From IMG/VR virus record IMGVR_UViG_3300009703_000019, positions 1 through 60,947 of that record: a stretch of 60,947 nucleotides of DNA. The stretch is one strand, 5' to 3'. This document shows, in pieces, positions 3,843-58,590 of the stretch. Below the pieces are notes generated by a model, which did no database searches, had not been told where the DNA came from, and saw only the letters and a list, made by a program, of their open reading frames with translations. Origin of the DNA: a virus (taxonomy: Duplodnaviria > Caudoviricetes). Position 1 is the stretch's first letter, and each line of letters starts with the position of its first letter. Made by a program: the position numbers and the translations under genes.

Positions 3843-4340
3843 TCATTCCTCTGTGTCTTCAAAATATTGCGAATAATGATTGTTAATTTTTGGATTAAAC
3901 CAATTATCATTTATTTTATGTTTAACATGACCACAATGCTTACATTTATTCGCATGGTGCTCTGGTAGTTTTGGTACTGGTGTTGGTATCTTGGTAATAG
4001 GATCCACACCTACCATAAGGAATTGTGCGGTGACACATTTTATTTGAGCGGAAGTTTTAACATCCTCTTTAACTCCTACTACATCAACTACCATTGACGT
4101 TCTTCCGACCTTTGTAATTTCCCCCCTCACCGATAATAGGCATCCTATATCAATGGGTTCTAGAAATTGTACATCCATAATCTTAGCTGTAATACAGTAT
4201 AACCTACTGAATCTTCGGCTTGTGACCGAAGCAGTTTGATCTAATACTTTAAGTAATTCGCCCCCATGAAATTTATTATCAAAATTCGATTGTTCTGGAC
4301 TTGGTGAAATAACAATAGTTGTTGATATTGGATTATCCAT
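3843..4340 (-). CDS. Acyl-CoA thioesterase, hotdog fold (YciA-like)
   Basis: N..NKFHGGELLKVLDQTA and FLEPIDIG...VGRTSMVV hotdog motifs. Confidence 0.85.
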   Translation of the reverse strand: MDNPISTTIVISPSPEQSNFDNKFHGGELLKVLDQTASVTSRRFSRLYCITAKIMDVQFLEPIDIGCLLSVRGEITKVGRTSMVVDVVGVKEDVKTSAQIKCVTAQFLMVGVDPITKIPTPVPKLPEHHANKCKHCGHVKHKINDNWFNPKINNHYSQYFEDTEE

Positions 4341-4351
4341 ATTCTCCCCGT

Positions 4352-6163
4352 TTAGTGGTCGTACCCTTGTGGTTCTCTAATAACATCTCTTCTTTCTAAT
4401 AAATCGTCGAGTTGATATTTGTCAATCGTTTCATATTTCATGAGACATTCGGTCATAGAATGTAAGATGTCTTCATTATCTTCGAGTATTTTCTTAGCCT
4501 TATCATAATTTTTGGTTGTTAATTTAATAACTTCCTCGTCTAGAAGTTTAGATATTTCTGGTGAAACTGTTTGAGCGGGTTGGCCCATGCTCCTACCCAT
4601 GAACGGATCACCTTGTTCATCTTCATAGCAAAGTGGACCTACTGCGTCACATAATCCCCATCGTTTGACCATATTTCTAGCAATAGATGTTGCTCTCTCA
4701 ATATCATTAGATGCACCAGTTGTAACTTTATCTTTACCGTAAACTAATTCTTCTGCAATCCGACCCCCATATAACGATTGAAGTTGTGATTCTAATTTTT
4801 CTTTTGATGCGGAATAAGAATCCTTTTCTGGTAGGAACATAGTAACCCCAAGAGCTCCACCTCTCGGCATAATAGATACCTTATAAACTGGATCATGAGT
4901 TTCGGTTAATCTACCTACAATGGCATGACCAGCCTCATGATATGCTGTCATTCTCTTCTCGTCCTCACCCATTATCATGGTTTTCTTTTCTACCCCCATA
5001 ATGAGTTTATCTTTTGCCCTTTCGAGGTCTGCCATGCAGATGTTTTCTTTATTTTCTTTTGCGGCAAAAAGAGCGGCCTCATTAATGAGATTTGCAAGTT
5101 CAGCACCACTGAATCCAGTAGTACCCTGTGCAATATATTCAAGTTTAATATCCGCGGATATTGGCACCCTTCGCATATGCACTTGAAGTATTTGCCCTCT
5201 GCCCTTGACATCAGGAAGTCCAACATTAATTTCTCTGTCAAATCTTCCGGGTCTTAATAATGCTTTATCTAGAACATCTGCTCTATTGGTTGCACCGAGT
5301 ACAATGATTCCATCTGAATCATCGAACCCATCCATTTCAACTAATAATTGGTTTAGGGTTTGTTCTCTCTCATCATTACCTCCACCGTGACCTGCCCCAC
5401 GCTGTCTTCCTACTGCATCAATTTCGTCTATGAATATGATACATGGACTGGATTTTCTTGCTTCAGAGAACATATCCCGAACTCTAGATGCACCAACACC
5501 AACAAACATTTCTACAAAATCTGAACCACTTATTGAAAAGAACGGAACATCTGCTTCACCGGCAATAGCACGAGCAAGTAAAGTTTTACCTGTGCCTGGT
5601 GGACCAACCATCAATGCACCCTTCGGTATTTTTGCACCGAGTCTTACATATTTTGGTGGGTTTCTAAGAAAATCTACCATCTCAGAAACCTCATCAAGAG
5701 CTTCTTCTACACCTGCGACATCAGAGAAAGTAACTTTCTCCTTTGACTGTTCTAGTTTTTTAGCTTTGTTCTTTCCTACAAATTTACCAGCACCACCGCC
5801 ACCTTGTCGCTTCATCCACCATATCCACACCCCTATTAATAACAATATAGGAAACCACGAAATGAATATGCTGAGAAAAAGAGAACCTTCCTTTGGTGGA
5901 TTTGCAATGACATCTACACCATTCTGGAGGAGATCATCTACCATGTGGGGATCATTGGGAGCATATGTTATAAATTTTCCACCGTCATAATATTCACCAA
6001 CAACGGTTTGATCATCTACTACAACTTTTTTTACCACCTTATCATTGACTAAATCTATAAATTTAGCATATGATACTTCCGATCCTATCTGCCCCCCTTT
6101 AGAATTCCCGAGGAAAGAGATAATAACTAATCCCATAATTAACCAAATTATTAGTCTTTTCAT
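4352..6163 (-). CDS. ftsH: ATP-dependent zinc metalloprotease FtsH
   Basis: Two TM segments, [46 protein letters not shown]. Confidence 0.97.
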
Positions 6164-6173
6164 AAATTGAATC

Positions 6174-8564
6174 CTATAATTCTAATATTTCTGATTCTAC
6201 GGAATGAACAACGTTGTTCATTGTCAAAATAGAATCGTAATTAAGTGATAGCGAATCAATCTCATGATTAACCAACCACGATGTTATTTCCGGGAAATCC
6301 GATGGTGCTTGCCCACAGATCCCAATATATTTACCATGTCTTTTGCATGATGTTATTGCCATTTCCATTAATTTGAGCACTGCTCCATTCCTCTCGTCAC
6401 ATCCGTTAATATTAGACGAATCTCTATCAACCCCAAGGGTTAATTGGGTTAAGTCATTAGATCCTATAGAAAATCCATCACAGTATTCTAAGAATTCATC
6501 CGCCAATAATGCATTACTTGGAACTTCGCACATGAATATAATTTTAATACCATGTTGACCAGATTTTATTCCATTTTCTTCTAATAATTGTATTACATTT
6601 TTTGCTTCATTTACAGTTCTAATAAAAGGAACCATAACTTGTATATTATTTAATCCATATTCTAGAATAACTTTTCTTATTGCAGAGCATTCCAACTCAA
6701 ATGCAAGTTTAAATTCTGGGGAATTATATCTATATGCACCCCTAAATCCGAGCATAGGATTTTCTTCCTCTGGTTCATAGAGATCACCACCATAGAGGTG
6801 AGCATATTCATTAGTTTTAAAATCGGATAATCTGAATATAACTGGTTTGGGATATACCGAAGCCGCAATGGTAGCAATACCATCTGCCAGTCTACTTCTA
6901 TAAAATTCTGTTGGTCGTGAATACCCAACAGTTTTTTCCGTTATGTGATCGTGCATCTCCTCAGATAATAGTGCATGATCGAGTATTGCGTTTGGGTGTA
7001 TACCTATACGGGAATTGATTATAAATTCAAGTCTTGCAAGTCCAACACCATCATTAGGATACTTAGCTATTTTAAATGCCATATCTGGATTACCAAGATT
7101 TAGCATCAATTTTGTTTTTGTTTTCTTGTATGAAGAAAAGTCTATTTTCTCTGTGGTGTATAGTAGGAGTCCATCGTAAACATATCCTATTTCACCTTCT
7201 GCACAAGATATTGTTATCTCCTCGTCATTTCCTATAACTGAGGTAGCATCATCACATCCAACCACGGCAGGTATACCAAGTTCTCTTGCTATAATTGCTG
7301 CGTGGCAAGTCCTACCTCCTCGATTGGTAATAATACCAGAGGATTTTTTCATTATTGGTTCCCAATCAGGATCGGTTATATCAGTTACGAGTATATCCCC
7401 CTCATTGAATTGATTCATATCACTGATATCATTAATGATAGATGATTTCCCCGAACCAATTTTAGATCCAATGGGTTTACCTGTAGTAATTACGGAGGAT
7501 GTTCGTTCTAATTTAAACACCTCATCAGAGCAAGGAGAATCCGCAGAATGAACCGTTTCTGGTCTAGATTGAACTATAAAGATTTCATTGGTAATACCAT
7601 CAATCGCCCACTCTATGTCCATGTGGGTCTTTTTACCATATTTCTTAGAATAATGGTCTTCAATAATTACTGCAGATTTAGCTAATGATATAACTTCCTC
7701 ATCACTTAAACAAAATTCTTGCTGCATGGATTTATCAACTTCAATATTATTCGTCCTATTAGACTCAGAATAAATCATTTTGACTAATTTGGCACCAAGC
7801 TGTCTTTGTATAATAGATTTATATCCATCCTTGAGAGTTGGTTTGAATACATAAAATTCATCTGGATTGACATTACCAGATACCACATTCTCACCAAGTC
7901 CGTATGCACCGGTGATAAATACCACATCATCAAATCCTGATTCTGTATCGAGGGTAAACATAACACCCGCGGTACCTCTATCAGATCGAACCATTTTCTG
8001 AATACCAATTGAAACTTTTACATCCCTGTGAGAATATCCATTACATATTCTATATGATATAATCCTGTCTGTAAATAATGAAGCGAATACGAGTTTACAT
8101 GCATGTATAACATCAACCGCACCAAATACATTTAGATATGTATCTAACTGACCGGCAAATGAATTTGATAATGAATCTTCTGTAGTTGCAGAAGATCTGA
8201 TAGCAACAGACCCACCAAGTTCATGATACGCTTGAAGTATCTCGAATTCTAATCGTGGTGGCATCTCTCCATTAATAAACCATGACCTAATAGTTTTACC
8301 TATTTCTGATAATGAGTCAATATCATCAATATCAACGTTCTTTAATATATCTTCAATTTTATGTTCGAGTTGATTGTGTTCAATAAAATCAGTATAACCA
8401 TCTACCTTTATGGCGAATCCATTCGGTACATTAATACCAGATTCGGTGAGTTCGGAATACATTTCACCGAGAGAAGCATTTTTACCACCAACTATAGAGA
8501 CATCTGATATACTTAATTCAGAATATTCTCGAATATAAGATAAATCACGATCAAATGCATGCAT
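6174..8564 (-). CDS. ppsA: Phosphoenolpyruvate synthase (pyruvate, water dikinase)
   Basis: VGGKNASLGEM, RSSAT.ED, GGRTCHAAIIARELG phospho-His, GVGLARLEF, FSIGSNDLTQ, GICGQ. Confidence 0.97.
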   Translation of the reverse strand: MHAFDRDLSYIREYSELSISDVSIVGGKNASLGEMYSELTESGINVPNGFAIKVDGYTDFIEHNQLEHKIEDILKNVDIDDIDSLSEIGKTIRSWFINGEMPPRLEFEILQAYHELGGSVAIRSSATTEDSLSNSFAGQLDTYLNVFGAVDVIHACKLVFASLFTDRIISYRICNGYSHRDVKVSIGIQKMVRSDRGTAGVMFTLDTESGFDDVVFITGAYGLGENVVSGNVNPDEFYVFKPTLKDGYKSIIQRQLGAKLVKMIYSESNRTNNIEVDKSMQQEFCLSDEEVISLAKSAVIIEDHYSKKYGKKTHMDIEWAIDGITNEIFIVQSRPETVHSADSPCSDEVFKLERTSSVITTGKPIGSKIGSGKSSIINDISDMNQFNEGDILVTDITDPDWEPIMKKSSGIITNRGGRTCHAAIIARELGIPAVVGCDDATSVIGNDEEITISCAEGEIGYVYDGLLLYTTEKIDFSSYKKTKTKLMLNLGNPDMAFKIAKYPNDGVGLARLEFIINSRIGIHPNAILDHALLSEEMHDHITEKTVGYSRPTEFYRSRLADGIATIAASVYPKPVIFRLSDFKTNEYAHLYGGDLYEPEEENPMLGFRGAYRYNSPEFKLAFELECSAIRKVILEYGLNNIQVMVPFIRTVNEAKNVIQLLEENGIKSGQHGIKIIFMCEVPSNALLADEFLEYCDGFSIGSNDLTQLTLGVDRDSSNINGCDERNGAVLKLMEMAITSCKRHGKYIGICGQAPSDFPEITSWLVNHEIDSLSLNYDSILTMNNVVHSVESEILEL

Positions 8565-8579
8565 TATATTCTCCGATTA

Positions 8580-9038
8580 TTACATACGAATTTCGAAATG
8601 TGGTGCGTCAATGAAAGGTCTTCGACCCTGATTTCTACGAAGATCTATATATGATGTCATTAGAGATTCCATTGGAGCGTTCCATGCTCTGATATCATTG
8701 AGGTGCCATGCTGCACCCCATCTAAGTGGTATACCAACTTCAATTGCAGATTCTTTCATAGCCTCTGCAATATCATCATAGACCTTTAGTTCCCAAGAAA
8801 CCTGTGACCCAATATAAGCTACAAGATCAACCGCTTTCCCAGTAAGGTGATTCGATTTCATAGTTTTTGATGCACCCTTATTGAAAAGTTCTTCTTGCCT
8901 AGCAAGAGACCGAACTCCCTCAGATACACCAAAATCAATTTTAGTTAATGTGATAGCTCTATGAACACACGATACCAGTTGTTCATCAACACCCTCCAAT
9001 CTACCTAAACTTCTTGATGATAATCTAAAATTTGACAT
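8580..9038 (-). CDS. Endolysin, peptidase M15 family (L-Ala-D-Glu-type)
   Basis: EGVRS..RQ, SNHLTGKAVD, RWG..W, DAPHFE zinc motifs. Confidence 0.85.
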   Translation of the reverse strand: MSNFRLSSRSLGRLEGVDEQLVSCVHRAITLTKIDFGVSEGVRSLARQEELFNKGASKTMKSNHLTGKAVDLVAYIGSQVSWELKVYDDIAEAMKESAIEVGIPLRWGAAWHLNDIRAWNAPMESLMTSYIDLRRNQGRRPFIDAPHFEIRM

Positions 9039-9047
9039 ATTATTCCT

Positions 9048-10325
9048 CTAAAATTGTTCCTCTTCGGTCGAGCCATCCATAGCAGTAGTAGATGATTTTC
9101 CACCTTGTATAGTATTGGTAATTAAATCAAAATATCCAGCACCAACTTCCTCTTGATGTCTTGCAAATGTATATCCATCTTTAAGAGATGCGAATTCTGG
9201 TTCTTGAACTCCCTCAACATAAGCAGTCATACCCCTCTCAACATAATCCTTCGATAACTCAAACATAGAATGCCACATATCATGAATACCAGCAAGGGTA
9301 ATGAATTGCCATTTAAATCCCATCTCACCTAGGCGTTTCTGATAATGTGCTATGGTTTCATCATCTAAATTCTTTTTCCAATTGAATGATGGTGAACAGT
9401 TGTAAGCCAGCAACTTGCCAGGATATTGTTGATGTATCGCAGTCGCAAATTTCTGTGCTTCTTCGAGATTAGGTACTGCAGTTTCACACCAGAGCATATC
9501 AGCATACTGTGCATATGCAAGTCCTCTGGAAATGGCCTGATCGATTCCAGATTTAACCCTATAGAATCCTTCCTCTGTACGTTCCCCTGTAACAAATTCC
9601 TTATCACGAACATCTATATTAGAGGTCAGTAGAGTTGCGGCATTAGCATCGGTTCTAGCTACGATAATAGTTGGTACACCCATAACATCGGATGCTAATC
9701 TTGCGGATACGAGTTTTTGAATTGCTTCCTGAGTTGGAACCAGTACCTTACCGCCCATGTGACCACATTTTTTGGCAGAGGATAATTGATCTTCAAGATG
9801 TATACCAGACACACCATTCTCGATCATTGATTTGGTCAGTTCATATGAATTAAGAACTCCACCAAACCCAGCCTCGGCATCAGCAATAATAGGAGCAAAA
9901 TAATCTACTTCCCTCGATCCCTTTGCCCATTGAATTTCATCTGCTCGGCGAAACGTATTATTAATACGCTTAACCATTTGTGGCACTGAATTATATGCAT
10001 AGAGCGATTGATCTGGATACATAGTTTCGCTGGAATTGCCATCCGCTGCTACTTGCCATCCCGATAAATATATAACTTTAATTCCAGCCTTGACCTGTTG
10101 CATTGCCTGACCGGCAGTTATAGCTCCCATAGAATTAACATATCCATCTTCGTTAATTAAATCCCAAAGTTTTTTAGATCCCAGAGAAGCCATAGTGTAT
10201 TCTTCATCCATCGAACCTCTTAATCGAATAACATCTTCGGCCGAATAAGGTCTGGAGATACCATTCCATCGTTCATTCTCTCTCCAATCCTCTTCTAAAG
10301 TTCTCACTCTGCCCAAATTTTCCAT
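9048..10325 (-). CDS. aceA: Isocitrate lyase
   Basis: KKCGHMGGK catalytic motif, [27 protein letters not shown]-terminal STEEEQF; start moved to 10325 (GAGG RBS); ORF track start is 10430. Confidence 0.97.
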
Positions 10326-10472
10326 ATATATTTTTGACCTCGTAATTGTAATTAATTTGCTAAATTTAGTATTAACCATACTCCAACGCATATGATTAAT
10401 GGTATTGTCATTGTCAATATAGACATCCAAACTGACTTAGTAACAGATTTACATAACCCATTACATTGATAA

Positions 10473-10670
10473 TTAATCTTTTCCAGTATTATTTCTACCC
10501 CAGACTGTACTATTTCGTTCACTTTCTTTCTTCTCCGTTTTTTGTTTATTATTAAATATAATATCCCAATTATCTCTAAATTTTTTATTTGTTATTTTTG
10601 ACTGAAGCTTATCCCCAGTTATATCATTCTTTGCCGTCATGCCCTTCTCGTTTATAGTTCCATCGTGCAT
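10473..10670 (-). CDS. Hypothetical protein
   Basis: 65 aa; KNDITGDKLQSK...FRDNWDIIF looks like a conserved small myophage protein. Confidence 0.5.
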   Translation of the reverse strand: MHDGTINEKGMTAKNDITGDKLQSKITNKKFRDNWDIIFNNKQKTEKKESERNSTVWGRNNTGKD

Positions 10671-10700
10671 ATGTCTTTCCAGATCTCATAATTATATATG

Positions 10701-10898
10701 TCACCTACAAAATTCATTTAATATTGTAGCATTTCCTTCGATAACCTCAACAGTATTATCTTGAATGAAGGTGTATTTCTCCTCCATTTTATAACCGCAT
10801 TTCTTGTAATCACTCCAAGAAATGCACTCTATTTTACCGGAGAGTTTACCATCCCCATTCATTAAAGGAACTGATATCATTCCAGATTCAGTGATCAT
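10701..10898 (-). CDS. Hypothetical protein
   Basis: 65 aa; ATGA overlap. Confidence 0.5.
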   Translation of the reverse strand: MITESGMISVPLMNGDGKLSGKIECISWSDYKKCGYKMEEKYTFIQDNTVEVIEGNATILNEFCR

Positions 10899-11137
10899 AT
10901 TTCCTCGACCTTTCTTTTCAATTTATCACGCTTTCGTTTAAGATCTTTAATCTCCCGTTTTAATTCTTTCTTTTCATCTAAATATCTGTTTACATCACTT
11001 ATATCACCGCACTTAGCCTCCATACGATTACCGATACTCTGTAATTCCTCTAGTAATCCCATAACAATTGAAAAGTTTCGTGTTTTATAACAAGCTCGCA
11101 TTTCATCTATCACGGTACAAAAATATCTATTTGTCAT
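10895..11137 (-). CDS. Hypothetical coiled-coil protein
   Basis: 80 aa; strong AGGAGG RBS. Confidence 0.6.
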   Translation of the reverse strand: MTNRYFCTVIDEMRACYKTRNFSIVMGLLEELQSIGNRMEAKCGDISDVNRYLDEKKELKREIKDLKRKRDKLKRKVEEI

Positions 11138-11155
11138 GTAAATCCTCCTTTGTAA

Positions 11156-13297: not shown

Positions 13298-13331
13298 AAT
13301 ATATATACACCTTTTATCAATTTATACATAT

Positions 13332-13361
13332 ATTATATCAAATTTAACAGTGAATGTAAAC
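13332..13361 (-). promoter_or_regulatory. Early-type sigma70 promoter GTTTACA-N17-TATAAT with AT-rich UP element
   Basis: Counted 17-nt spacer; T4 early -35 GTTTAC; upstream of the VWA gene. Confidence 0.8.
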
Positions 13362-13378
13362 AATTATTTTCATTTATT

Positions 13379-17103: not shown

Positions 17104-17104
17104 A

Positions 17105-47010: not shown

Positions 47011-47022
47011 ATAATTAAAAGT

Positions 47023-48631: not shown

Positions 48632-48635
48632 TTAT

Positions 48636-48892: not shown

Positions 48893-49056
48893 ATTTTACC
48901 TCTTTCCAGATTGCATTCTACCAAATTCTGATAGTCGAACCCAATCGTGTTTAACATCATCCGTAAAATGATGATGTATTAATAATACAAATACCCAGAG
49001 AACTAATAGAAATATTATTAGTATCCCTGCTGCGTACATGATTATTTTTTTGATAA

Positions 49057-50073: not shown

Positions 50074-50076
50074 TAT

Positions 50077-50337
50077 TTACCCCGTGACTTTGAGATTTTG
50101 TATATGCCATGTTCCACCAGCACCAGATTTAAACACCAAACGGACTAGTTCAGCAGAAACAATCTCTACTATTTTAGCTTGTTCTGAACTCTTGAATTGA
50201 TAAAGCTCATCATATTTTAATGAAACGATATCCCCTATTCTAGTACCCCATTTTTCAAAAAAGGTTCTTTCCATCTCTTCCCTTTTTTCTTGTAGTTTCT
50301 TTTCTGCATCCAGATCTTTCATGTCTTGTAAATTCAT
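50077..50337 (-). CDS. Hypothetical protein
   Basis: Likely start MNLQD, ATGA-coupled to gp43 stop. Confidence 0.55.
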   Translation of the reverse strand: MNLQDMKDLDAEKKLQEKREEMERTFFEKWGTRIGDIVSLKYDELYQFKSSEQAKIVEIVSAELVRLVFKSGAGGTWHIQNLKVTG

Positions 50338-52790
50338 GTAAAAAATTCCTCCAATGTATTTCTTTTTTCGGGTGTCCAATTAATAATTTTTAACATATTA
50401 TCAACTGGCATTAAAAATGCTTTCTCGAATTGAAGATCATAATCTATATATTCAGATAACTCAAGTTCTCTAGGAAGAACAGAAGGAACCGAAATTACAT
50501 TAGATTTTATAGGATTAGGCATTTTAAGATAACAAAATTTAATCTTAGTCCCATTCTCTATATATTCGTATTTAGAATCTAATCCTAGTATTCTTACATA
50601 TTCATTATATAATATTGAACCTCGTACATGTATAGGGGTTCCTTTTTTAAATAATGTGGTATTATCATAAAATTTATCCAAATTGTTAGCAGTCCTAGGG
50701 AATGCGATATCTATGTAATCTGCCTTTGCAAATTCGAGTTTAAAATTGGAATAATATTCTTGTGCCTCCTTCTCTGTACCATTTAAAATAATTTTAATAA
50801 ATTCCTTTAGAGCTGTTCGGCATATAGGTGGTGTTGAACTTTTAATAGCCTCAATACCCATCATTTTAATTTTAGGGGTTTTATATCTAACCCCTTCATT
50901 ATCAATGACATTCATAATATATCTTTTTTTGGCAAAGAACACGGTTGAATCAGCAATTGCCTCTCGATCCATAAACATTTTCTGATCATAGGCATTCGTA
51001 TAATCTGCAAGATCTTGATACGATTCATCAATTAATTTTCGGAATTGATTAGATCCTATTGCATCAAGAAAATTAACTTTCTCCTCAACAGTCCGGGTTG
51101 ATTCAAATAATTTAGAAACAAGTGAATCGAATGTTACATAAACTGAATCCGTATCAGAAGCAATTATATAATCAACATCCCCTGTTAACATTATTTTGTT
51201 CATGTATTTATTAATAGTACGTTCGATCCATCGAATACTTAATTGCCCTGCTGTTGTAATGGATTCTGCCATATTAACATCGAAATGACGAAAATATTTA
51301 TTCCCAAGAGCACCATATAAAGAATTTAGAAGAATTTTAAGAGCCATTTGTTCAACATAAAGTTTCTCTTCGAGGTCTTTGTTTCCTTCCCTTTGAGCCA
51401 GGATCATTTTGCTCTTTACTGTTTTTCTTGTCGTGAAAAATTGATCCATTAATTCTGGAATAAAACCCCGGACTTTAGTAGAATAGGTCATTCCGTTTGG
51501 GGTTATAGTGTAATCTCCCAAATCAAATACGTTGGTTTTATCCAACATAGAATCAATCGACACATTAGGAATACGAGATTGAATGGTTTCCGGTGAAATA
51601 TTATACTGCATAATTAGATGAGGATACAGCGAAGCAAGGTCAAATGACATTACCCAAGAATGTCTTCCTGTTTGGGTTTCTTTAACATATCCACCAACAA
51701 AATCCCGGAACTCAGATTCCTTATTAGATCCAACAACAATATTTTTCTTTATAAGATGATTATAGCATATTACGTCCCAAACCTTTAATGTCCCAAGGAC
51801 ATCTACATAATTAGATTTAGCTTTATACGTCATCATGTAAACCAAATCCAGGAGTTTGAGTTTATCATCAAGTCTTCTGACTAGCTCAGTATCCTTTATA
51901 TTATAATCTATAAAGAGTTCATAATTTTTCTCATATAAATTAAAAAGGTTTTCATATTCAGAATAATCAAGTTTCTTTTCCTCTAGTTCTTCGAATGATA
52001 TGTTATTAAGGGAATATGATTCTCTATTTACAAATGTAAATTTTTTATATAGAGAGACATAATCTAGATTAGATATACCGAGTATATCATAGGTTTGCTG
52101 TTCTCTACCAAAAGAGGTATTAACTCTTTTCTCTCTTATAATCCCCCATGGACTTAATTTTTGGGCAAAATCGAAAGAAATGATTTTTGATATTCTGTTG
52201 ACGATATAAGGAACATCAAAGAATTCAATATTCCATCCGGTGATAACATCAGGTTTAATAAATTCCCAAAGATTTACAAATTTCGTTAGGAGATCCTTTT
52301 CATCTTCGCATTTAATATATTTAGAATTATCCCTTTTCGATGTATAATCCCCTGTACCAAATGTGAAATAATCATTATTATATTCTATGGTAATGGCATT
52401 GATTTCACCATTAGCCTTTTCTGGGTATGGAAACCCACCCTCGGGTGGTTGCATGGTTTCAATATCGAAATTGAGTACCCGGATATCTTCGGCATTAAAT
52501 TCAATATCATCTTCCCAGTTCTCAGCTATATATTTGTACTGATTCGGAAAATCCCCGTATACAGGGAATACATCTTTGAATTGATTAAAATACTCACGAG
52601 ATTTCTTAATGGTTTTAAATTCTTTTTTTATTAAAGATTTTTCCCCACTTAGATCTTTATATGATCCTTCCCCCTCAATCCAAAGAGATGGTTTGTATCT
52701 TATTTTTCGGAAATATTGTTTACCAGAATCGTATCCTCTGGTATAAATCATTCCGTTTTGTTGAATAGTATTTGTATAAAAACAATTCAT
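50334..52790 (-). CDS. gp43: Family B DNA polymerase gp43
   Basis: FDIET, GWN..FFD, YN..D, SFDLASLYP, K..LNSLYG, DTDS, KKRY, KSSTP. Confidence 0.97.
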   Translation of the reverse strand: MNCFYTNTIQQNGMIYTRGYDSGKQYFRKIRYKPSLWIEGEGSYKDLSGEKSLIKKEFKTIKKSREYFNQFKDVFPVYGDFPNQYKYIAENWEDDIEFNAEDIRVLNFDIETMQPPEGGFPYPEKANGEINAITIEYNNDYFTFGTGDYTSKRDNSKYIKCEDEKDLLTKFVNLWEFIKPDVITGWNIEFFDVPYIVNRISKIISFDFAQKLSPWGIIREKRVNTSFGREQQTYDILGISNLDYVSLYKKFTFVNRESYSLNNISFEELEEKKLDYSEYENLFNLYEKNYELFIDYNIKDTELVRRLDDKLKLLDLVYMMTYKAKSNYVDVLGTLKVWDVICYNHLIKKNIVVGSNKESEFRDFVGGYVKETQTGRHSWVMSFDLASLYPHLIMQYNISPETIQSRIPNVSIDSMLDKTNVFDLGDYTITPNGMTYSTKVRGFIPELMDQFFTTRKTVKSKMILAQREGNKDLEEKLYVEQMALKILLNSLYGALGNKYFRHFDVNMAESITTAGQLSIRWIERTINKYMNKIMLTGDVDYIIASDTDSVYVTFDSLVSKLFESTRTVEEKVNFLDAIGSNQFRKLIDESYQDLADYTNAYDQKMFMDREAIADSTVFFAKKRYIMNVIDNEGVRYKTPKIKMMGIEAIKSSTPPICRTALKEFIKIILNGTEKEAQEYYSNFKLEFAKADYIDIAFPRTANNLDKFYDNTTLFKKGTPIHVRGSILYNEYVRILGLDSKYEYIENGTKIKFCYLKMPNPIKSNVISVPSVLPRELELSEYIDYDLQFEKAFLMPVDNMLKIINWTPEKRNTLEEFFT

Positions 52791-52821
52791 GAAGAACCCT
52801 CAATTTGTAGATCATAATAAC

Positions 52822-52851
52822 ATTATATATTAAATTCCGGGAATTGTAAAC
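52822..52851 (-). promoter_or_regulatory. Early-type promoter GTTTACA-N17-TATAAT for gp43
   Basis: Counted 17-nt spacer. Confidence 0.8.
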
Positions 52852-52852
52852 T

Positions 52853-53149
52853 TTATGACAGAATTTGTGATTTTGGTGCGTATATTTTAGAATACATAGA
52901 CGAATAAGAAGAAAGAATATCTTCTGTTGGGGCGGCAGAAGTTACAACAAAATCATTCGGAATTGTGAATTCTGTATTTGTTGAATACGGCATCCATGGA
53001 GATAATGCCATTTGCATTGCACCATCATCATTTCTACCAACTGGCATAACTACGGCAGGATTTTCCACCACATAGTTATCATCAACTTCAGTAATAACAT
53101 CACATAAAATATCTTCACCACTTCTCAATCTTAAAATCTCAATACTCAT
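52853..53149 (-). CDS. Conserved small T4-like protein (Sm-like)
   Basis: L.SGED....V...NP...PWMP. Confidence 0.65.
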   Translation of the reverse strand: MSIEILRLRSGEDILCDVITEVDDNYVVENPAVVMPVGRNDDGAMQMALSPWMPYSTNTEFTIPNDFVVTSAAPTEDILSSYSSMYSKIYAPKSQILS

Positions 53150-53532
53150 TTAATTCCTCCTATATTATATTTCGCTATTAATTCCCACTTATCTTTATCT
53201 TTGTGAGAAATAACCTTAATTTGGTTCATTGGTGCTAGGTTTCCTAGCTCATGTTTAACTTTCAGGAGACCCCAATCTGATAATAATTTAGCAATAGCAT
53301 TTCTTCTCTCGAGATCGTTATCTGATATATCAGTAGGTTTACCATCAAGTTTAAATAATTCCTTAAAATGAACAAGGTAATATTTATTTTGTTTATGAAG
53401 GATATGGCAAGACTGATAAAGTTTATTATCTTTTCGGGATGCCACACCAATCCTTGTCAATGTCTCTTTAATTTTCAGAAAATCATCAGCTTGTCCGAAA
53501 GAGATTTCTAATAATGAATCTATGTCACTCAT
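53146..53532 (-). CDS. regA: Translational repressor RegA
   Basis: DDFLKIKETLTRIGVAS...LYQSCHILHKQ..Y.VHFKELF.LDG. Confidence 0.95.
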   Translation of the reverse strand: MSDIDSLLEISFGQADDFLKIKETLTRIGVASRKDNKLYQSCHILHKQNKYYLVHFKELFKLDGKPTDISDNDLERRNAIAKLLSDWGLLKVKHELGNLAPMNQIKVISHKDKDKWELIAKYNIGGIK

Positions 53533-53559
53533 AATATTTAGTCCGTTATAAAATATTGA

Positions 53560-53567
53560 TATTTATA
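53560..53567 (-). promoter_or_regulatory. T4-type late promoter TATAAATA upstream of regA
   Basis: Exact motif in intergenic gap. Confidence 0.6.
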
Positions 53568-53570
53568 AAA

Positions 53571-53942
53571 TCAAGTTCCACCCTTGTATAAGAATTTTTT
53601 GATTTCAGTGAGATGATCAATAGATAACAAATCAAGTACGGCCTTAGCTTTTTTATCGGAATAATTATAATATTCTTTTATTGCAGAAATATTATCATCC
53701 TCTACAGATTTTAACCATGGTGCATATCGTCTCTTCTTTTTGATCACCTTCAAGTAGTATTTATATTGAATATCTTTATCAAGAAAATGGAATCTATTTA
53801 ACTCGTTGGCAAAAAATAATGTATCAATATTTGCAGACATACATTTATTAATGATAAATGGAGAATATTGGTCGATATACTCAGACAAATCTGTTTTATT
53901 AGAATTAACGGAATTGAGCCAATCTGATAATTTTAATTTCAT
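53571..53942 (-). CDS. gp62: Clamp loader small subunit gp62
   Basis: Y.PFIIN..S...D....N..N, KRRYAPW.K, YY.YS..KA; synteny. Confidence 0.88.
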   Translation of the reverse strand: MKLKLSDWLNSVNSNKTDLSEYIDQYSPFIINKCMSANIDTLFFANELNRFHFLDKDIQYKYYLKVIKKKRRYAPWLKSVEDDNISAIKEYYNYSDKKAKAVLDLLSIDHLTEIKKFLYKGGT

Positions 53943-54871
53943 TTGAATTCACATCTAAGCATAATTTCTGTTAGAGCTGCAAGAATATTAATCTCAGGAT
54001 CAGCAACAAATGCAGACTTATATTGATATTCAGCTATGATAACAACTGCTTCTGGAATAGATGGCGGTTTTAAATAATCATAGAGAGAATCATAAACCAA
54101 TCTATAGATGGCATCGCTTTCATTATCAATATTATCTACAACCCATTTTCTAACATTAGTAAATTCCTTCCTCGAAAGAAACCCAATGAGTTCGTTAATT
54201 TGAATTGAATTTGTCGATAAAATACCAGAGTTTATTCCACCAGAACTTGAATACCTTTGAAGTTCATTAATAAGTCTTCTGAAATCTGGAAAGAATTTCA
54301 TTATGAGTTGAACCAGAACTTCTTTATCATACTTAACAGATTCAGCGGTTAATATATACTCAATACGGTTAAGAAGTTTAAGAGCTAAGGTGGGTTTATT
54401 TGAGGGTGTAATCGAAAAATCAATTACAGAACATCTAGAATGTATCGGCTCAATAAGTTTATTTTTATAATTACACGTTAATATAAATCTACAGTTTCTA
54501 TAAAATTCTTCAAATACACCACGAATAGCCTTTTGAGCCTCTGGTGTCATTGAGTCAGCTTCATCGAGAATAATAACTTTACCAGTGGAAGAAAACGATT
54601 TTGTTGATGCAAATTGTTTTACTTTATTTCGAATGGTATCAATACCTCGTTCATCCGAGGCGTTAATCATCACAAAATCCGCACCAATCTCGTTACACAG
54701 TATTTTCGCTATGGTGGTTTTGCCTATACCAGCAGAACCCGTCAGCATAAGATGTGGTATTTCTTTATTTTTAATAAACCCCTCGAATATTTTAGAAGAT
54801 GATTCTTCCAATATACATTCCGGAATTTTGGTTGGTCTATATTTTTCTACCCATAAAAAATTATTACTCAT
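53939..54871 (-). CDS. gp44: Clamp loader large subunit gp44
   Basis: WVEKYRP, GSAGIGKTT, INAS, ILDEAD, SRC. Confidence 0.95.
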   Translation of the reverse strand: MSNNFLWVEKYRPTKIPECILEESSSKIFEGFIKNKEIPHLMLTGSAGIGKTTIAKILCNEIGADFVMINASDERGIDTIRNKVKQFASTKSFSSTGKVIILDEADSMTPEAQKAIRGVFEEFYRNCRFILTCNYKNKLIEPIHSRCSVIDFSITPSNKPTLALKLLNRIEYILTAESVKYDKEVLVQLIMKFFPDFRRLINELQRYSSSGGINSGILSTNSIQINELIGFLSRKEFTNVRKWVVDNIDNESDAIYRLVYDSLYDYLKPPSIPEAVVIIAEYQYKSAFVADPEINILAALTEIMLRCEFK

Positions 54872-54888
54872 TCACTCACCTCATAATA

Positions 54889-55227
54889 TTATTTTAAATC
54901 TATCACCATATAATAAATTGCTAGAGGAATTGCCATTCCCACTATTATCGGGATCACCAGAATAGCTACTATATAATTCGATACATTAACATTCTCAGAG
55001 TTCATGGAAGACCATCTCATCATAGTATTTTTCCTATATGGTTTGAGTTTCCATAGTTTTACCTTATTCTTATATTTTTCTATTTTCCCGTCGGTATATT
55101 TTTCTATCTCGTATGATCTTCCATTTGAATATCTATAGAGATTATATCCAAAGAGAAGACATACTAATATAGCTACTCCAAATATACCAGAACTTAATAA
55201 TAATATTGATGTGTATAATGATAACAA
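54889..55227 (-). CDS. Two-TM membrane protein inserted between gp45 and gp44
   Basis: TTG start; two hydrophobic segments. Confidence 0.5.
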   Translation of the reverse strand: MLSLYTSILLLSSGIFGVAILVCLLFGYNLYRYSNGRSYEIEKYTDGKIEKYKNKVKLWKLKPYRKNTMMRWSSMNSENVNVSNYIVAILVIPIIVGMAIPLAIYYMVIDLK

Positions 55228-55878
55228 TTAATTTTCCGTTGTAACCCAATAAGTGACATTCTCACTATCAAATTTAGCAATTCCCTCTTTCGAAATTGAT
55301 AAGGTATAATCGTTTGGAATCATTTTAAGATTTTCATACTTAAAATAAAATTCATATTCTGTAGTTGAATCGACATTATCAATTACCGTGAGATGTGAAT
55401 TTTTATTACCATCTTTCTTATCAATAACACCAAAGGTTGTGGTAATCCCATCGGATTTTAAAACAATGTCAGACAGCTGAAGAACGGCGGCAGACTTCAC
55501 TGTATCGGATAACAGATCCTTTGGTAGTTTGATAGATACAAAAAAATCTTCAATATCGATTGTTTTGTCCGATACTGTTAAAATGTTTTTTGCTGCAAAA
55601 TGAAAACGAACTACCGTATTCGCTTTATCTTTCCATGAAATATCAACATAATCATCGGAGAAGTCGATACATGGTGATCTATATAAAGATAGAACAGAAA
55701 GGAATTCTGATAAATCATATATACCAAATTCTGGAAGATCTTCTTCAATAGCAGAATTGGCTAATATATTTTTCATGGGAGAGACGGTTTTGATTTTCCC
55801 CCCACCTGAATAATAAAAATTCGAATTGATAGTCGCAAAGTTTTTTAAGACTTCAAGAGTCTTTTTTGATAAATTCAT
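55228..55878 (-). CDS. gp45: Sliding clamp gp45
   Basis: LS..TL.VLKNFATIN, FGIYDL.EFL, ENLK..P.DY, YW...E. Confidence 0.93.
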   Translation of the reverse strand: MNLSKKTLEVLKNFATINSNFYYSGGGKIKTVSPMKNILANSAIEEDLPEFGIYDLSEFLSVLSLYRSPCIDFSDDYVDISWKDKANTVVRFHFAAKNILTVSDKTIDIEDFFVSIKLPKDLLSDTVKSAAVLQLSDIVLKSDGITTTFGVIDKKDGNKNSHLTVIDNVDSTTEYEFYFKYENLKMIPNDYTLSISKEGIAKFDSENVTYWVTTEN

Positions 55879-55907
55879 TCATTTCACCTCTTTTTAAATA
55901 TAATTCA

Positions 55908-55937
55908 ATTATACAACATTAATGCATGGTTGTAAAC
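55908..55937 (-). promoter_or_regulatory. Early-type promoter GTTTACA-N17-TATAAT for gp45
   Basis: Counted 17-nt spacer. Confidence 0.8.
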
Positions 55938-56126
55938 TTTATTGATGTGTGTGTCCGTCAGAGCTATGAGCATTCCCAGAAGGAAAAGTCGCACAATAGG
56001 ATATGTCAGGAGTGTGATTCAAGCACCTTTTAAATTCTGTATAATAATTCATAAATATAACAAATAATACAATATACAATAATAATTTCATAATAATCTT
56101 CCCATCGCTATTGTGCGATTAATTTT

Positions 56127-56567
56127 CTATTTAATATCCATAGTTCTTCGTTTTTTGTTTTCTGGTATAATTTTCTCGAGGTCGATATATAACATACCAT
56201 TTTCCATCTTGACTGATGATATCTCTATATTTTCAGAAATTTTAAAAACTCTTTCAAATTTACGTTTTGATATACCACGATGAAGATATTCTACAGATTT
56301 CTCATTGTTTTTTAATTCTGGCTGATCTTTAGATTTAACGATAACATTCGAATCATAATATTCAACCTGAATTTCATCTTTAGCGAAACCAGCGAGTGCC
56401 AGTTCAATAACATACATATCATCGGTTTTTTCTACGATATTATATGGAGGATATTTGGGTTGATTTAGATTGGAAATGTTTTCAAGTTCATGAAAAACCT
56501 TATCCATCCCAACAGAGAATTGGTTGTAGGGAAATCCTAAAAGTGGTCTAGTAAATTCGTTTAGCAT
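56127..56567 (-). CDS. Small heat-shock protein (Hsp20, IbpA-like)
   Basis: YPPYNI, IELALAGF, YLHRGIS.R.F.R.F, NGML.I.L...IPE. Confidence 0.92.
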   Translation of the reverse strand: MLNEFTRPLLGFPYNQFSVGMDKVFHELENISNLNQPKYPPYNIVEKTDDMYVIELALAGFAKDEIQVEYYDSNVIVKSKDQPELKNNEKSVEYLHRGISKRKFERVFKISENIEISSVKMENGMLYIDLEKIIPENKKRRTMDIK

Positions 56568-56633
56568 AGTAGCTCCTTATTAAGCAAGTTGTAATGACCA
56601 ATATTGGTCGGCGTAATCCCTTTCGGCAATTAC
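56568..56633 (-). promoter_or_regulatory. ROSE-like RNA thermometer leader of hsp20
   Basis: Three hairpins; the last pairs CUUGCUU with AAGGAG (SD) leaving a bulged G. Confidence 0.6.
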
Positions 56634-56638
56634 TTTAT

Positions 56639-56646
56639 TATTTATA
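56639..56646 (-). promoter_or_regulatory. T4-type late promoter TATAAATA for hsp20
   Basis: Exact motif immediately before the structured leader. Confidence 0.7.
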
Positions 56647-56752
56647 ACACTTACACAAACCTATATGTAAATGTTATTAATAAATACGTCATTAACATAA
56701 CCATGAATATGAATGTTAATAATAAATTTCTCATATATCTTCTATTCCTATC

Positions 56753-57931
56753 TTATGTTAATGATACATCATCATAATAACCTGATTTTTCAGCTGTTTC
56801 TTCTAGGGAAGTATTATTTTCTTTTTCAATATTAGCCGAAGCATCGAACTTGGTATATAACTCTTTGAAGGTGTTTTTAGTATCTTCATCAAAACGAGAA
56901 ATAGCTAAATCGATTGACTTCATACGATCACCGAAAATAGCGAAGGTTTGAACAATGTGAGCTAAACGACGGGTTGAGATAACATCATCAACACCTTCAT
57001 CATAGAAGGTTTTACGAATACCATCTGCCCATGAGACCAGAAGTTTAGCAAATTCTTCATCAACTGAACCAAAGGCCTTCATGTGATTCATAATGATTTT
57101 CTCTTCTGTTGCCGCCGGGGCAAAAGGTTGTTCAATGGTAATGGAAAATCTCTCGAGGAATGCTTCATCAATAATAGTAGCGGCTGAGAATTTACCAGAC
57201 TCTGAACCTTGACCTTTAGTATTAGCAGTAGCAATAACATTGAAACCTGGTTTGGGTTCGATAAGCTCACCAGTTTTTTTAATAACAATTGGTTTACCTT
57301 CAAGAACACCTTGAAGAGCCATAATCTTATTAGAACCGCGATCGATCTCATCAATCAAGAGGACTGCACCAAGTTCCATAGCCTTAACAATAGGTCCTTT
57401 CTCAAAAACTGTTTCACCATCAACAAGACGAAAACCACCAATTAAATCATCTTGATCCGTTTCTGGTGAAATCTGAACACGAATGAACTCGCGTTTAGCA
57501 TTAGCAGCAGCTTGTTCTACCATCATAGTTTTACCATTACCAGATAAACCAGTAACGAAGATAGGGTAGAAAAATTCAGTTTTAATAATTTTGAGAACAT
57601 CTTTATAAGCACCCCATTTAACAAAATTAGGATCAACCTGCGGTACATAAGAGGATTTAAATTCATCAACAAAAACAGTTTTTCTTACCTCCCTAACTAG
57701 GGTTTTCTCAACAATGTTATCCATTTCCTTTCTTTCTTGGAAGGGAAGAGGGACAATAACACCAGATATATCATATGTACCCCGGGAAACCCGGGGAATC
57801 TCATTTGTAGTAGGACCCATATTTTTATAACCAGAAGCTATAGCGGCATCATTTAGTTCGGACGAAGAATAAATGGTTTTATTCGGGTTCTGAGATTGTA
57901 GATAATCAACAATCTTTTGTAATTTCTTCAT
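56753..57931 (-). CDS. CobS/MoxR-like AAA+ ATPase
   Basis: GLSGNGKT, DDLIGGFRL, LLIDEID, ATANTKG.G, AFLERF, ISTRRL; start moved to 57931. Confidence 0.88.
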   Translation of the reverse strand: MKKLQKIVDYLQSQNPNKTIYSSSELNDAAIASGYKNMGPTTNEIPRVSRGTYDISGVIVPLPFQERKEMDNIVEKTLVREVRKTVFVDEFKSSYVPQVDPNFVKWGAYKDVLKIIKTEFFYPIFVTGLSGNGKTMMVEQAAANAKREFIRVQISPETDQDDLIGGFRLVDGETVFEKGPIVKAMELGAVLLIDEIDRGSNKIMALQGVLEGKPIVIKKTGELIEPKPGFNVIATANTKGQGSESGKFSAATIIDEAFLERFSITIEQPFAPAATEEKIIMNHMKAFGSVDEEFAKLLVSWADGIRKTFYDEGVDDVISTRRLAHIVQTFAIFGDRMKSIDLAISRFDEDTKNTFKELYTKFDASANIEKENNTSLEETAEKSGYYDDVSLT

Positions 57932-57963
57932 AATATAGTACCTCTTTATCAATTTATAGCTAC

Positions 57964-57993
57964 ATTATACCATATCCTCTCGATGTTGTAAAC
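57964..57993 (-). promoter_or_regulatory. Early-type promoter GTTTACA-N17-TATAAT with UP element
   Basis: Counted 17-nt spacer; flanks nearly identical to the 13332 promoter. Confidence 0.8.
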
Positions 57994-58011
57994 ACTTATT
58001 TTCATTTATTT

Positions 58012-58590
58012 TCACATATTACTCATATCTGTTCGGTATGTTGATGGATGTACATCATCTACTTCATCTACATGAGGATAACTATTCCTAGTTGGATGTA
58101 CATCCTCTGTTTCTGTTACACACGTCAGGGATTCTATTGTAACTTCTCCTTTGTACGGCCAAGTCTGCCGAGGGGGTAGTTTTCCAACCAGGCTACCATT
58201 GTCATACCATCGTTTTCCCTGTGCCATCTGGTTAACGGGATCACCAGTATCAAGGAAAGTAACTACAGTTGGTTTATATCCAAGTTCTGTTAATTCAAGA
58301 TGTCGAACCCATGTAACAGTACCATAGGCAACTATTATAACTTCATCAGACACATCACACATTCGTGCAGCAGCTCCATTTACAGAAATTGTAAAGGATC
58401 TAGGATCTGGAATTGCATATGTTGTGAACCTATTACCGTTGGTGATGTTGTATATTTCAATTTGCTGATATGGTAATATATTCGCCTTCTCCAATATATC
58501 ATTCGAAATCCCGCAAGATCCCTCATAATTAATATCACATTCGGTGACTATTGCACCGTGTATTTTTGACTTTAATATTTTTATTTCCAT
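58012..58590 (-). CDS. panD: Aspartate 1-decarboxylase with C-terminal extension
   Basis: LKSKIH, YEG/S self-cleavage site, NGNRFTTYAI, NGAAAR, D.VII..Y. Confidence 0.88.
   Translation of the reverse strand: MEIKILKSKIHGAIVTECDINYEGSCGISNDILEKANILPYQQIEIYNITNGNRFTTYAIPDPRSFTISVNGAAARMCDVSDEVIIVAYGTVTWVRHLELTELGYKPTVVTFLDTGDPVNQMAQGKRWYDNGSLVGKLPPRQTWPYKGEVTIESLTCVTETEDVHPTRNSYPHVDEVDDVHPSTYRTDMSNM

Follow-up and report, generated by a model that had tools for sequence, protein, structure and literature searches.

A T4-like marine phage fragment encodes a beta-oxidation set with isocitrate lyase, PEP synthase and PRPP synthase: a possible route from lipid to nucleotides

Can a tailed phage encode enough of central metabolism to turn fatty acids into precursors for its own DNA? 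The question is raised by the IMG/VR virus record IMGVR_UViG_3300009703_000019, analyzed here over its entire 60,947 bp (the window), in which genes for fatty-acid oxidation, isocitrate cleavage, the synthesis of phosphoenolpyruvate (PEP) and phosphoribosyl pyrophosphate (PRPP), and coenzyme A (CoA) supply lie among T4-type replication genes. The original prediction joined them into one fatty-acid-to-nucleotide pathway. All of the genes that it named are present and intact on the minus strand, which carries every substantial open reading frame (ORF) and all genes described below, and the position first assigned to each is correct or differs by no more than the choice of start codon. Judged from their sequences, the genes almost certainly constitute a real, phage-borne and functional set; that they jointly carry lipid carbon into nucleotides is the interpretation that we favor, with moderate confidence.

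Gene assignments draw on curated NCBIfam cutoffs, Pfam domains and solved relatives in the PDB; motif residues were read from the translations, and the catalytic roles given to them are those usual for each family. An acyl-CoA dehydrogenase and a trifunctional alpha/beta pair together make a complete beta-oxidation cycle, and the window encodes all of these. The FadE-type acyl-CoA dehydrogenase (31197–33395, between nrdA and nrdB) scores 911.9 bits against the NF007000 cutoff of 600, contains four ACAD Pfam domains and retains V445-E446-G447-A448-N449 (invariant in eight of eight aligned sequences), the VEGAN motif that presumably houses the catalytic Glu. It falls below the strict FadE_coli model (852 versus 1300), of whose 816 profile positions it matches 70–730; about 67 positions of this E. 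coli profile are missing at the N-terminus and about 86 at the C-terminus. The 3-ketoacyl-CoA thiolase, or beta subunit (23688–24986), lies 4 nt upstream of the alpha-subunit gene and displays Cys90 and a C-terminal His and Cys, which we take to be the catalytic residues. It was originally called FadI, a name that it does not merit (303.9 versus 560 for the NF006516 equivalog); it passes NF006030 instead (PRK08170, acetyl-CoA C-acetyltransferase; 603.7 versus 593). The 641-residue alpha subunit (21759–23684) is a FadJ/FadB-like fusion of enoyl-CoA hydratase and 3-hydroxyacyl-CoA dehydrogenase (ECH_1, 3HCDH_N and 3HCDH domains) that matches the alpha chain of the fatty acid oxidation complex in the PDB over residues 12–638 (E 6e-101). 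It is about 70 residues shorter than its bacterial counterpart and, among the matches listed, at most 48% identical to the nearest 50%-cluster representatives; its domain content indicates a protein that works like a trifunctional alpha subunit rather than a strict FadJ. A class-3 lipase (16351–17103; Lipase_3, PF01764, 86.7 bits) with GHSLG, presumably its catalytic motif, shows no signal peptide evident by eye.

Isocitrate lyase (ICL) splits isocitrate into succinate and glyoxylate. The ICL of the window (9048–10325) reaches 752 bits against the NF011645 cutoff of 562 and is 66% identical to the enterobacterial enzyme; KKCGH, which we take to be the active-site motif, stands at residues 220–224 of the longest ORF. 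This ORF opens at a TTG at 10430, but the relatives align only from residue 30–42 (one from residue 6), which favors the ATG start chosen originally. Malyl-CoA lyase catalyzes the reversible condensation of glyoxylate with acetyl-CoA, and hydrolysis of malyl-CoA then yields malate. A malyl-CoA/beta-methylmalyl-CoA lyase-type CoA-ester lyase of the HpcH family (Mcl; 14107–15072) aligns over its full length with PDB entries 5ugr_A (E 1.7e-102, 346 bits) and 4l9y_A (E 1.5e-84, 287 bits), whereas matches to CLYBL (110 bits) and CitE (56–101 bits) are far weaker than those to the solved Mcl enzymes. It passes no NCBIfam cutoff (132.9 versus 500 for the haloarchaeal model) and is likely, on sequence similarity, to be a Mcl1-type malyl-CoA lyase rather than CitE, RipC or CLYBL.

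There is precedent for such a lyase in this role: the "apparent malate synthase" of Rhodobacter sphaeroides consists of the lyase Mcl1 and the malyl-CoA thioesterase Mcl2, and Methylobacterium also has malyl-CoA lyase. The phage lyase resembles these proteins closely over its whole length, with 4l9y and 5ugr as its top PDB matches. By analogy, Mcl, perhaps with a thioesterase, likely substitutes for malate synthase in the phage. The candidate partner is a hotdog acyl-CoA thioesterase (3843–4340; 4HBT, Acot/YciA-type; PF03061, 50 bits) that matches acyl-CoA hydrolases in the PDB (E 2e-18 to 1e-16) and may act as a malyl-CoA thioesterase; it is unrelated to Mcl2, which is CitE-like. PEP synthase PpsA (6174–8564) is assigned by NF005057 (1104 bits, cutoff 598), by a second model (1068 versus 739.75) and by three Pfam domains, and shows GGRTCHAAI with His421, presumably the phospho-histidine, and Cys750, which we take to be catalytic as well.

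Two further enzymes would link this chemistry to nucleotides and CoA. Ribose-phosphate diphosphokinase Prs (15345–16292) scores 335.8 against 297 for NF002320 and 300.8 against 113 for TIGR01251, and its translation contains DDMIDGGGT, presumably the catalytic motif. Aspartate 1-decarboxylase PanD (58012–58590; PF02261, 121 bits versus 25) aligns with E. coli PanD at K9, H11, G24-S25 and Y58; we take Gly24-Ser25 to be the self-processing site and Lys9 and Tyr58 to be key residues. Its C-terminal tail of ~80 residues is variable and not equally long in all relatives, in which 168–192 residues of the protein are matched. The tail also contains an imperfect 48-nt direct repeat (58045–58120). An ORF of 156 residues (58581–59051) with a lipoprotein-like N-terminus (LVGC, by eye) overlaps the panD start; it is kept beside panD in the 115-kb relative described below (77%) and has no Pfam or PHROG match. 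The predicted nucleotide sink is present too, since Pfam identifies NrdA (34199–35962; Ribonuc_red_lgC and lgN), NrdB fused to glutaredoxin (29043–30239; Ribonuc_red_sm and Glutaredoxin) and the thymidylate synthase ThyX (26288–27055; PF02511).

The surroundings of these genes are viral. Pfam recognizes the T4-type replication module expected of such a backbone: gp43, gp41, the gp44 clamp loader (gp44/62), the gp45 clamp, gp59, the gp61 primase, UvsX and RNase H. The family-B DNA polymerase gp43 (50334–52790) shares 45–46% identity with its counterparts in cyanomyoviruses, marine single-virus genomes and Phage C48C1 (recorded under Kyanoviridae), and its top 25 matches are all of cyanophage type. 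A pelagimyophage identity was considered and rejected on this basis and on a term search of the pelagimyophage paper, which returned no mention of ICL, fatty acids, glyoxylate, tmRNA, acyl-CoA or FtsH (PMC7029224). Within the window, the only virion gene is a tail-fiber/decoration-like ORF (18271–19887), and the terminase, portal and major head genes are found on the contigs of relatives: terminase and portal on G007, major head and portal on G002, and tail fibers on G006. The window is a 61-kb piece of an uncultured, widespread and distant marine T4-like myovirus. A 115-kb relative, G001, is rated 64% complete by CheckV, so that the full genome should measure about 180 kb.

Positions 4723–41327 and 49122–59338 have collinear counterparts in independent contigs from IMG/VR and metagenomes, at about 84–96% nucleotide identity, and the same gene order recurs in at least ten different metagenome assemblies. 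Eleven contigs (L001–L011, 84–96%) follow 21937–41327 with thyX, nrdB, fadE, nrdA, gp59, phoH, RNase H and primase; the 37-kb IMG/VR contig L034 follows 4723–17936, L146 covers 8140–18972, L144 covers 17702–21594 and L044 covers 49122–59338. The 39-kb metagenome contig L143 spans 11449–29906 and so connects the ICL/Mcl/Prs/lipase block with the thiolase/alpha-subunit block. FadE is found on 11 IMG/VR contigs (83–97% identity) and PanD at 15 IMG/VR loci, and 14 of the 21 IMG/VR loci with ICL are 85–95% identical. The metabolic genes occupy several separate loci among core phage genes, as originally described, and these number at least five. Their flanks are viral: fadE is enclosed by nrdA and nrdB, the pair of thiolase and alpha-subunit genes has a PD-(D/E)XK gene and thyX as neighbors, and panD has cobS and gp45, and the same flanks surround them in independent contigs. 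Positions 1–4722, 41328–49121 and 59339–60947 have no match of at least 85% nucleotide identity among the loci compared; for 1–4722 and 41328–49121, a relative encodes homologues of most of the larger proteins.

The gene set also recurs in diverged phages. G001 carries eleven genes of the window, namely those for the thioesterase, FtsH, PpsA, Mcl, FadE, PanD, Prs, lipase, alpha subunit, thiolase and ICL, in another order, and four further contigs, all fragments, carry subsets (G002, G003, G004 and G005), in support of the co-occurrence of these genes. Between G001 and the window the metabolic proteins are 76–90% identical (thioesterase 76%, FtsH 89%, ICL 90%), FadE being the exception at 58%, whereas the replication proteins have diverged much further (gp43 44%, gp41 54%, UvsX 57%, gp44 49%, gp45 31%, primase 35%). 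This discrepancy could reflect either very different constraints or gene exchange between phage backbones. G001 additionally encodes malate dehydrogenase (Mdh; 418 versus a cutoff of 271), alanine dehydrogenase (393.3 versus 391.85), a quinone-dependent dihydroorotate dehydrogenase (DHODH; 269.9 versus 267), a PurN-like formyltransferase, a decarboxylase-like enzyme dependent on thiamine pyrophosphate, DnaK, DnaJ, gp32, GST and an FTR1-type permease. Mdh fills one of the gaps that the original prediction had named, and DHODH and the PurN-like gene suit a nucleotide sink; together with alanine dehydrogenase, these enzymes are consistent with carbon passing to oxaloacetate or pyruvate and from there to nucleotides.

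All of the metabolic genes are under purifying selection. The ratio of nonsynonymous to synonymous divergence (dN/dS), obtained pairwise by the NG86 method from close and distant pairs, is 0.04–0.19 for all eleven genes (ICL 0.041–0.111, PpsA 0.055–0.112, thioesterase 0.056, lipase 0.11–0.16), and in close pairs (dS 0.16–0.45) the range for metabolic genes equals that for core genes. Against G001, dS is 0.69 for FtsH, 0.77 for Mcl and 0.93 for PpsA, and at least 1.4 for core genes; for ICL, Prs, PanD, the FadJ-like gene and NrdA it is near saturation, a divergence at which NG86 is unreliable.

The phage copies stand apart from cellular ones. A quick maximum-likelihood tree, built from 45 FadE sequences without a completed careful search and rooted only at the midpoint, places the window-type phage clade as sister to the G001-type phage clade (99% SH-aLRT), with a further clade between the two and gammaproteobacterial FadE. 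For Mcl and ICL, the separation into phage groups that the original prediction invited is seen as identity gaps in match listings rather than in trees: phage Mcl proteins are 88–96% identical, followed by a gap to 64–68% (Methylococcales, Nitrosomonas and others), and phage ICLs are 85–97% identical, followed by cellular proteins at 74–76% (gammaproteobacterial metagenome-assembled genomes (MAGs), Thiotrichales and Ca. Thioglobus). The best cellular FadE in GTDB genomes, at 62%, lies on a 5.7-kb MAG contig, and the others are at or below 52%; no cellular homologue thus comes close to identity (at most 76% for ICL, 68% for Mcl and 62% for FadE). The clades and gaps indicate that the genes were acquired long ago and have evolved in phages since. 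The FadE of the 5.7-kb contig (L054, from a gammaproteobacterial MAG) groups inside the G001-type phage clade, and the contig is probably phage DNA that was binned into the MAG. ICL homologues 58–67% identical also occur on IMG/VR contigs labeled GVMAG (L024, L025, L026 and L033). The nearest named cellular relatives of ICL, Mcl and FadE belong to gammaproteobacterial MAGs, Thiotrichales, Methylococcales, Nitrosomonas and Ca. Thioglobus and, at 50–76% identity, are too distant for a host to be named. The alphaproteobacterial-type tmRNA of the window was considered as a host marker and set aside as not diagnostic; such a tmRNA occurs in Melnitz, an OM43 phage with a gammaproteobacterial host (PMC9004378).

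A mechanism is proposed in which the phage copies would keep fatty-acid oxidation going after host transcription falls. Fatty acids, perhaps released by the lipase, which may be cytoplasmic and whose lipid substrate we infer, would be activated to acyl-CoA by host functions, which would also re-oxidize FadE, and the phage beta-oxidation enzymes would generate acetyl-CoA, NADH and reduced flavin. ICL, Mcl and a thioesterase could then turn acetyl-CoA into net succinate and malate rather than CO2, with malyl-CoA hydrolyzed by the phage thioesterase or by a host enzyme. Malate would pass to oxaloacetate, by host Mdh or, in relatives, by phage Mdh, or to pyruvate; PpsA would make PEP, and host gluconeogenesis and pentose-phosphate enzymes would deliver ribose 5-phosphate. 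Prs would form PRPP, NrdAB and ThyX would complete the supply of dNTPs, and PanD may help to sustain the CoA pool. The scheme presumes that the genes are expressed during infection, that flux runs in this direction and that nucleotides are the main sink.

Several observations weigh against this pathway. The window covers only about a third of the genome, with the remaining gene content outside view. Scans of its minus-strand ORFs of at least 200 residues agree with the original prediction in finding no acyl-CoA synthetase, electron-transfer flavoprotein or other FadE acceptor, and no Mdh, malic enzyme or phosphoenolpyruvate carboxykinase (PEPCK); FadD, FadL and FadR are likewise absent from the window. 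Twenty extra ORFs scanned in G001 supplied neither malic enzyme, PEPCK, acyl-CoA synthetase nor a FadE acceptor. Malate synthase is absent from the window ORFs of at least 200 residues and from the G001 ORFs scanned, its sole trace being a sub-threshold MS_TIM-barrel match inside the lyase, so that the ICL half of the predicted glyoxylate shunt stands and the canonical shunt, with AceB, does not. NCBIfam holds no curated bacterial Mcl model against which the lyase could be scored, and the thioesterase could equally waste acyl-CoA. The alpha subunit is below both FadJ equivalogs (NF008363, 500.6 versus 869; TIGR02440, 432.8 versus 968), and the strict FadJ name was therefore dropped, although the hydratase and dehydrogenase domains are in place. 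PanD narrowly misses the TIGR00223 equivalog (101.3 versus 106). To these are added the promoter results given below. Overall, the original interpretation holds in that the genes are phage-borne, spread over several loci, co-occurring and under purifying selection; it overstated the promoters, the FadI and FadJ names and the canonical shunt.

The main benefit to the phage could be either carbon for nucleotides or energy, and the strongest alternative is confined to the latter. It holds that beta-oxidation would supply ATP and reducing power to a large phage whose host is poor in carbon and that ICL and Mcl would only replenish the tricarboxylic acid cycle while acetyl-CoA serves as fuel, with PpsA, Prs and PanD as unrelated boosters and no meaningful lipid carbon reaching nucleotides. 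The direct products of beta-oxidation are indeed NADH, reduced flavin and acetyl-CoA, and PpsA is the sole gluconeogenic enzyme in the window. In the passages that concern these genes, a virome study reads fad and aceAB as energy production (PMC4053976) and a virocell study casts fatty-acid degradation as an energy source (PMC11170926). However, PpsA, Prs, NrdAB and ThyX co-occur with the oxidation genes, joined in a relative by Mdh, DHODH and a PurN-like gene, and the glyoxylate bypass saves carbon at the cost of NADH, which an energy supply by itself would not need. We consider an explanation by energy and anaplerosis alone unlikely.

Gene arrangement and promoters bear on whether the genes act together at all. 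ICL, an M15 peptidase, PpsA, FtsH and the thioesterase, in that order with the thioesterase last, form a tight array with gaps of 9–15 nt, and nrdA, two small ORFs and fadE form another co-directional array. A strict search for TTTACA/TTGACA-N16-18-TATAAT on both strands found 16 sites on the coding strand and 7 on the other, compared with 5.4 on average over 50 mononucleotide shuffles. Thirteen of the 16 coding-strand sites lie outside the listed ORFs; of the other three, thyX and ppsA contain two, and the third overlaps the start of the RNase H gene. They precede gp43, gp45, primase, cobS, a peptidase gene and prs, among others. Four of the sites form a repeat family of about 67 nt (13313–13379, 21685–21751, 31140–31206 and 57945–58011; also 36987–37023 and 52820–52856). 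In the coding-strand sense the repeat amounts to a sigma70 promoter close to consensus (TTTACA-N17-TATAAT), and it stands upstream of the peptidase gene, an ORF that follows the alpha-subunit gene, orf90/NT5C/nrdB, cobS, the gp59 region and gp43. The statement that the metabolic genes sit behind phage-type promoters is borne out for prs, which has a consensus early promoter (TTTACA-N17-TATAAT) at 16322–16350, 30 nt upstream; it fails for the others, since prs is the only pathway gene with a strict promoter directly upstream and the rest lie in tight co-directional arrays without a consensus promoter of their own. A loose sigma70 scan of 3500–17200 gave 52 sites versus 62 in shuffles, hence no enrichment, and the T4 late promoter TATAAATA is not enriched either (11 matches versus 13 expected). 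Early or middle co-expression with the replication genes is plausible from this arrangement.

A second alternative is that there is no coordinated pathway, the genes having been gained singly to relieve short-lived or rate-limiting host enzymes in a way that mirrors the host's diet. The at least five scattered loci and the different gene order in different lineages would fit this view; adjacency is limited to the thiolase/alpha-subunit pair and the ICL-to-thioesterase array, and the contrast between FadE (58%) and ICL (90%) across lineages suggests unlinked histories. On the other hand, all 11 genes are kept in two lineages whose replication proteins are only 31–57% identical, purifying selection is similar on all of them, and the three beta-oxidation enzymes would be of little use singly. 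Piecemeal gain without coordination is therefore, in our estimate, quite improbable. Hardly credible is an artifact, whether a chimera of assembly or bacterial DNA taken for viral: matches to FadE, FadJ, PpsA, Mcl and PanD in GenBank phage records are at most 55% identical and sit mostly in records that look bacterial or mixed by their names and gene content, the metabolic-rich 2-kb bins (4–6, 8–10, 22–24 and 32–36 kb) have a slightly higher G+C content (0.38–0.40, within a range of 31–40% for the window) than the replication-gene region (36–56 kb, 0.31–0.35, with bins at 0.31–0.33), and three stretches have no close match, but the collinear independent contigs, which extend across every metabolic locus, the phage genes that flank each metabolic gene, the virion genes on relatives and the distance of all cellular homologues largely refute this.

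How does the lipid-to-nucleotide reading compare with known systems? Bacterial FadE with FadBA or FadJI, and AceA with AceB, are the same enzyme families with the same chemistry; the phage set differs in its FadE without the N-terminal segment, PRK08170-type thiolase, shorter alpha subunit, Mcl in place of AceB and dispersed genes. Cyanophage auxiliary metabolic genes (AMGs; talC, zwf, gnd, cp12, psbA) steer host carbon into the pentose phosphate pathway and dNTPs. Like them, the window has the T4-type backbone of a marine myovirus, with many AMGs dispersed between the core genes, and the same nucleotide-feeding logic would apply, but its carbon would come from fatty acids and acetyl-CoA rather than photosynthate, and its enzyme families are others. 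Virus-encoded beta-oxidation genes have a precedent in the giant virus PkV RF01, and a 2022 review in eLife reportedly lists beta-oxidation among the energy-metabolism genes of giant viruses (Nucleocytoviricota). Acyl-CoA dehydrogenase and beta-oxidation steps are thus shared with giant viruses, which have eukaryotic hosts and different backbones, unlike the tailed phage here.

Among the closest counterparts is an aceBA operon in the complete 179-kb T4-like environmental genome TARA_ERS478052_N000008 of Nishimura et al. (2017) (PMC5332604). As described in the main-text passages of that paper, this genome too is marine and ~180 kb, with T4-like structural genes, isocitrate lyase and a second glyoxylate-shunt step, and its authors likewise read the operon as net carbon assimilation from acetyl-CoA; it has a canonical AceB adjoining AceA, whereas the window has no AceB and its Mcl lies 5 kb from ICL (56 kb in G001). 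Beta-oxidation genes, PpsA and PanD are unmentioned in those passages (PMC5332604). Hurwitz, Hallam and Sullivan (2013) reported fadB, fadL, aceAB and prs reads in ocean viromes; of these genes, none but fadL and prs had their viral origin validated by a link to viral genes (PMC4053976). The relevant passages of that study attribute the same families to ocean viruses and see carbon redirected to energy and dNTPs, but at the level of reads, with no single genome holding the set and with fadE, thiolase, Mcl, PpsA and PanD unmentioned. Infected Pseudoalteromonas raise their own fatty-acid degradation proteins under low phosphate, according to the pertinent part of the virocell study (PMC11170926). 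Literature searches confined to open-access papers, with supplementary tables outside their scope, found no phage with a beta-oxidation set. The novelty of an end-to-end set is qualified by the published aceBA operon; the finding belongs with phage AMG modules already known in kind, and the beta-oxidation set in a phage would be the new part.

A more ambitious reading, which we offer as a tentative possibility only, would take all of these observations together as a globally distributed phage group with a nearly self-sufficient heterotrophic carbon module, a proteostasis backup and genes exchangeable between backbones. Lipase, FadE and the trifunctional enzyme would feed acetyl-CoA into the module; malyl-CoA lyase and the hotdog thioesterase would form a new two-protein malate synthase; Mdh and PpsA would lead to PEP; and Prs, DHODH, NrdAB and ThyX would lead on to nucleotides. 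FtsH, tmRNA, DnaK and DnaJ would back up a metabolism run largely by viral enzymes. The higher identity of the metabolic proteins (76–90%, FadE 58%) relative to the replication proteins (31–57%), with a SegE-type endonuclease nearby, would reflect mobility.

The genes named in this connection deserve a description of their own. The AAA+ metalloprotease FtsH (4352–6163; Peptidase_M41, AAA and FtsH_ext) was not part of the predicted pathway but lies inside the same gene array; it is full-length, and one relatives' locus is L137:3279-6221. A two-piece (permuted) tmRNA of alphaproteobacterial type with the tag AEDNFALAA (17707–17975) passes the Rfam gathering scores (RF04321, 106 versus 47 bits; RF01849, 71.7 versus 50) and is also called by ARAGORN; an ORF of 108 residues (17354–17680) follows it. 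In the close relative G006, collinearity with the window stops inside the tmRNA gene, where tail-fiber genes start. Similar ssrA genes have been reported in OM43 and SAR11 myophages (PMC9004378). With FtsH and tmRNA in the window and DnaK and DnaJ in G001, the proteostasis set is sizeable. The SegE-type GIY-YIG homing endonuclease (28581–29000; Pfam, 126.6 bits; 73% in G001) adjoins nrdB and might help genes to move between phages that infect the same cell.

Other features of the window touch the pathway less directly. They include an MscS-like channel domain (2725–3237), NT5C-type 5'-nucleotidase (30252–30857), PhoH (37020–37709), Hsp20 (56127–56567) and a CobS-like AAA ATPase (56753–57952; phrog_249). 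A 713-residue protein (11156–13297) has no Pfam match, a full-length match to the PHROG "peptidase" phrog_459 (468 bits) and its own consensus promoter, and its gene contains an acidic 42-nt tandem repeat at 12601–12684. A second repeat, of 59 nt, occurs in two 97% identical copies (59037–59095 and 59507–59565), one beginning beside tRNA-Met (59565–59640) and the other ~470 nt downstream; each enters the start of a small ORF, and the repeat is possibly another cassette with promoter and ribosome-binding site. At the end of the window, the C-terminal part of a phosphate-selective porin O/P (60206–60946; Pfam, 118 bits) remains open; no counterpart was found in a pattern scan of IMG/VR or in five relatives, and the porin is left out of the finding.

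Phage AMGs usually contribute single steps, and the best-known multi-gene cases are cyanophage photosynthesis and the pentose phosphate pathway. The phage described here, whose host would be a marine heterotroph, encodes the three beta-oxidation enzymes in full, a bypass that conserves carbon, the gluconeogenic entry step and PRPP synthesis, and its relatives contribute Mdh as well as steps of pyrimidine and purine synthesis; for a virus of bacteria, such metabolic equipment is unusually complete. The lineage is sufficiently common to be studied: its two FadE clusters have 36 and 25 members, which come from several sources and lie on dozens of contigs. Provided that the genes are active, they would provide a natural two-protein alternative to malate synthase and make a compact, soluble FadE and trifunctional enzyme available for study; infected cells would turn lipid into phage DNA and CO2 by means of viral enzymes, and the place of viral infection in models of marine lipid and dissolved-carbon turnover would change.

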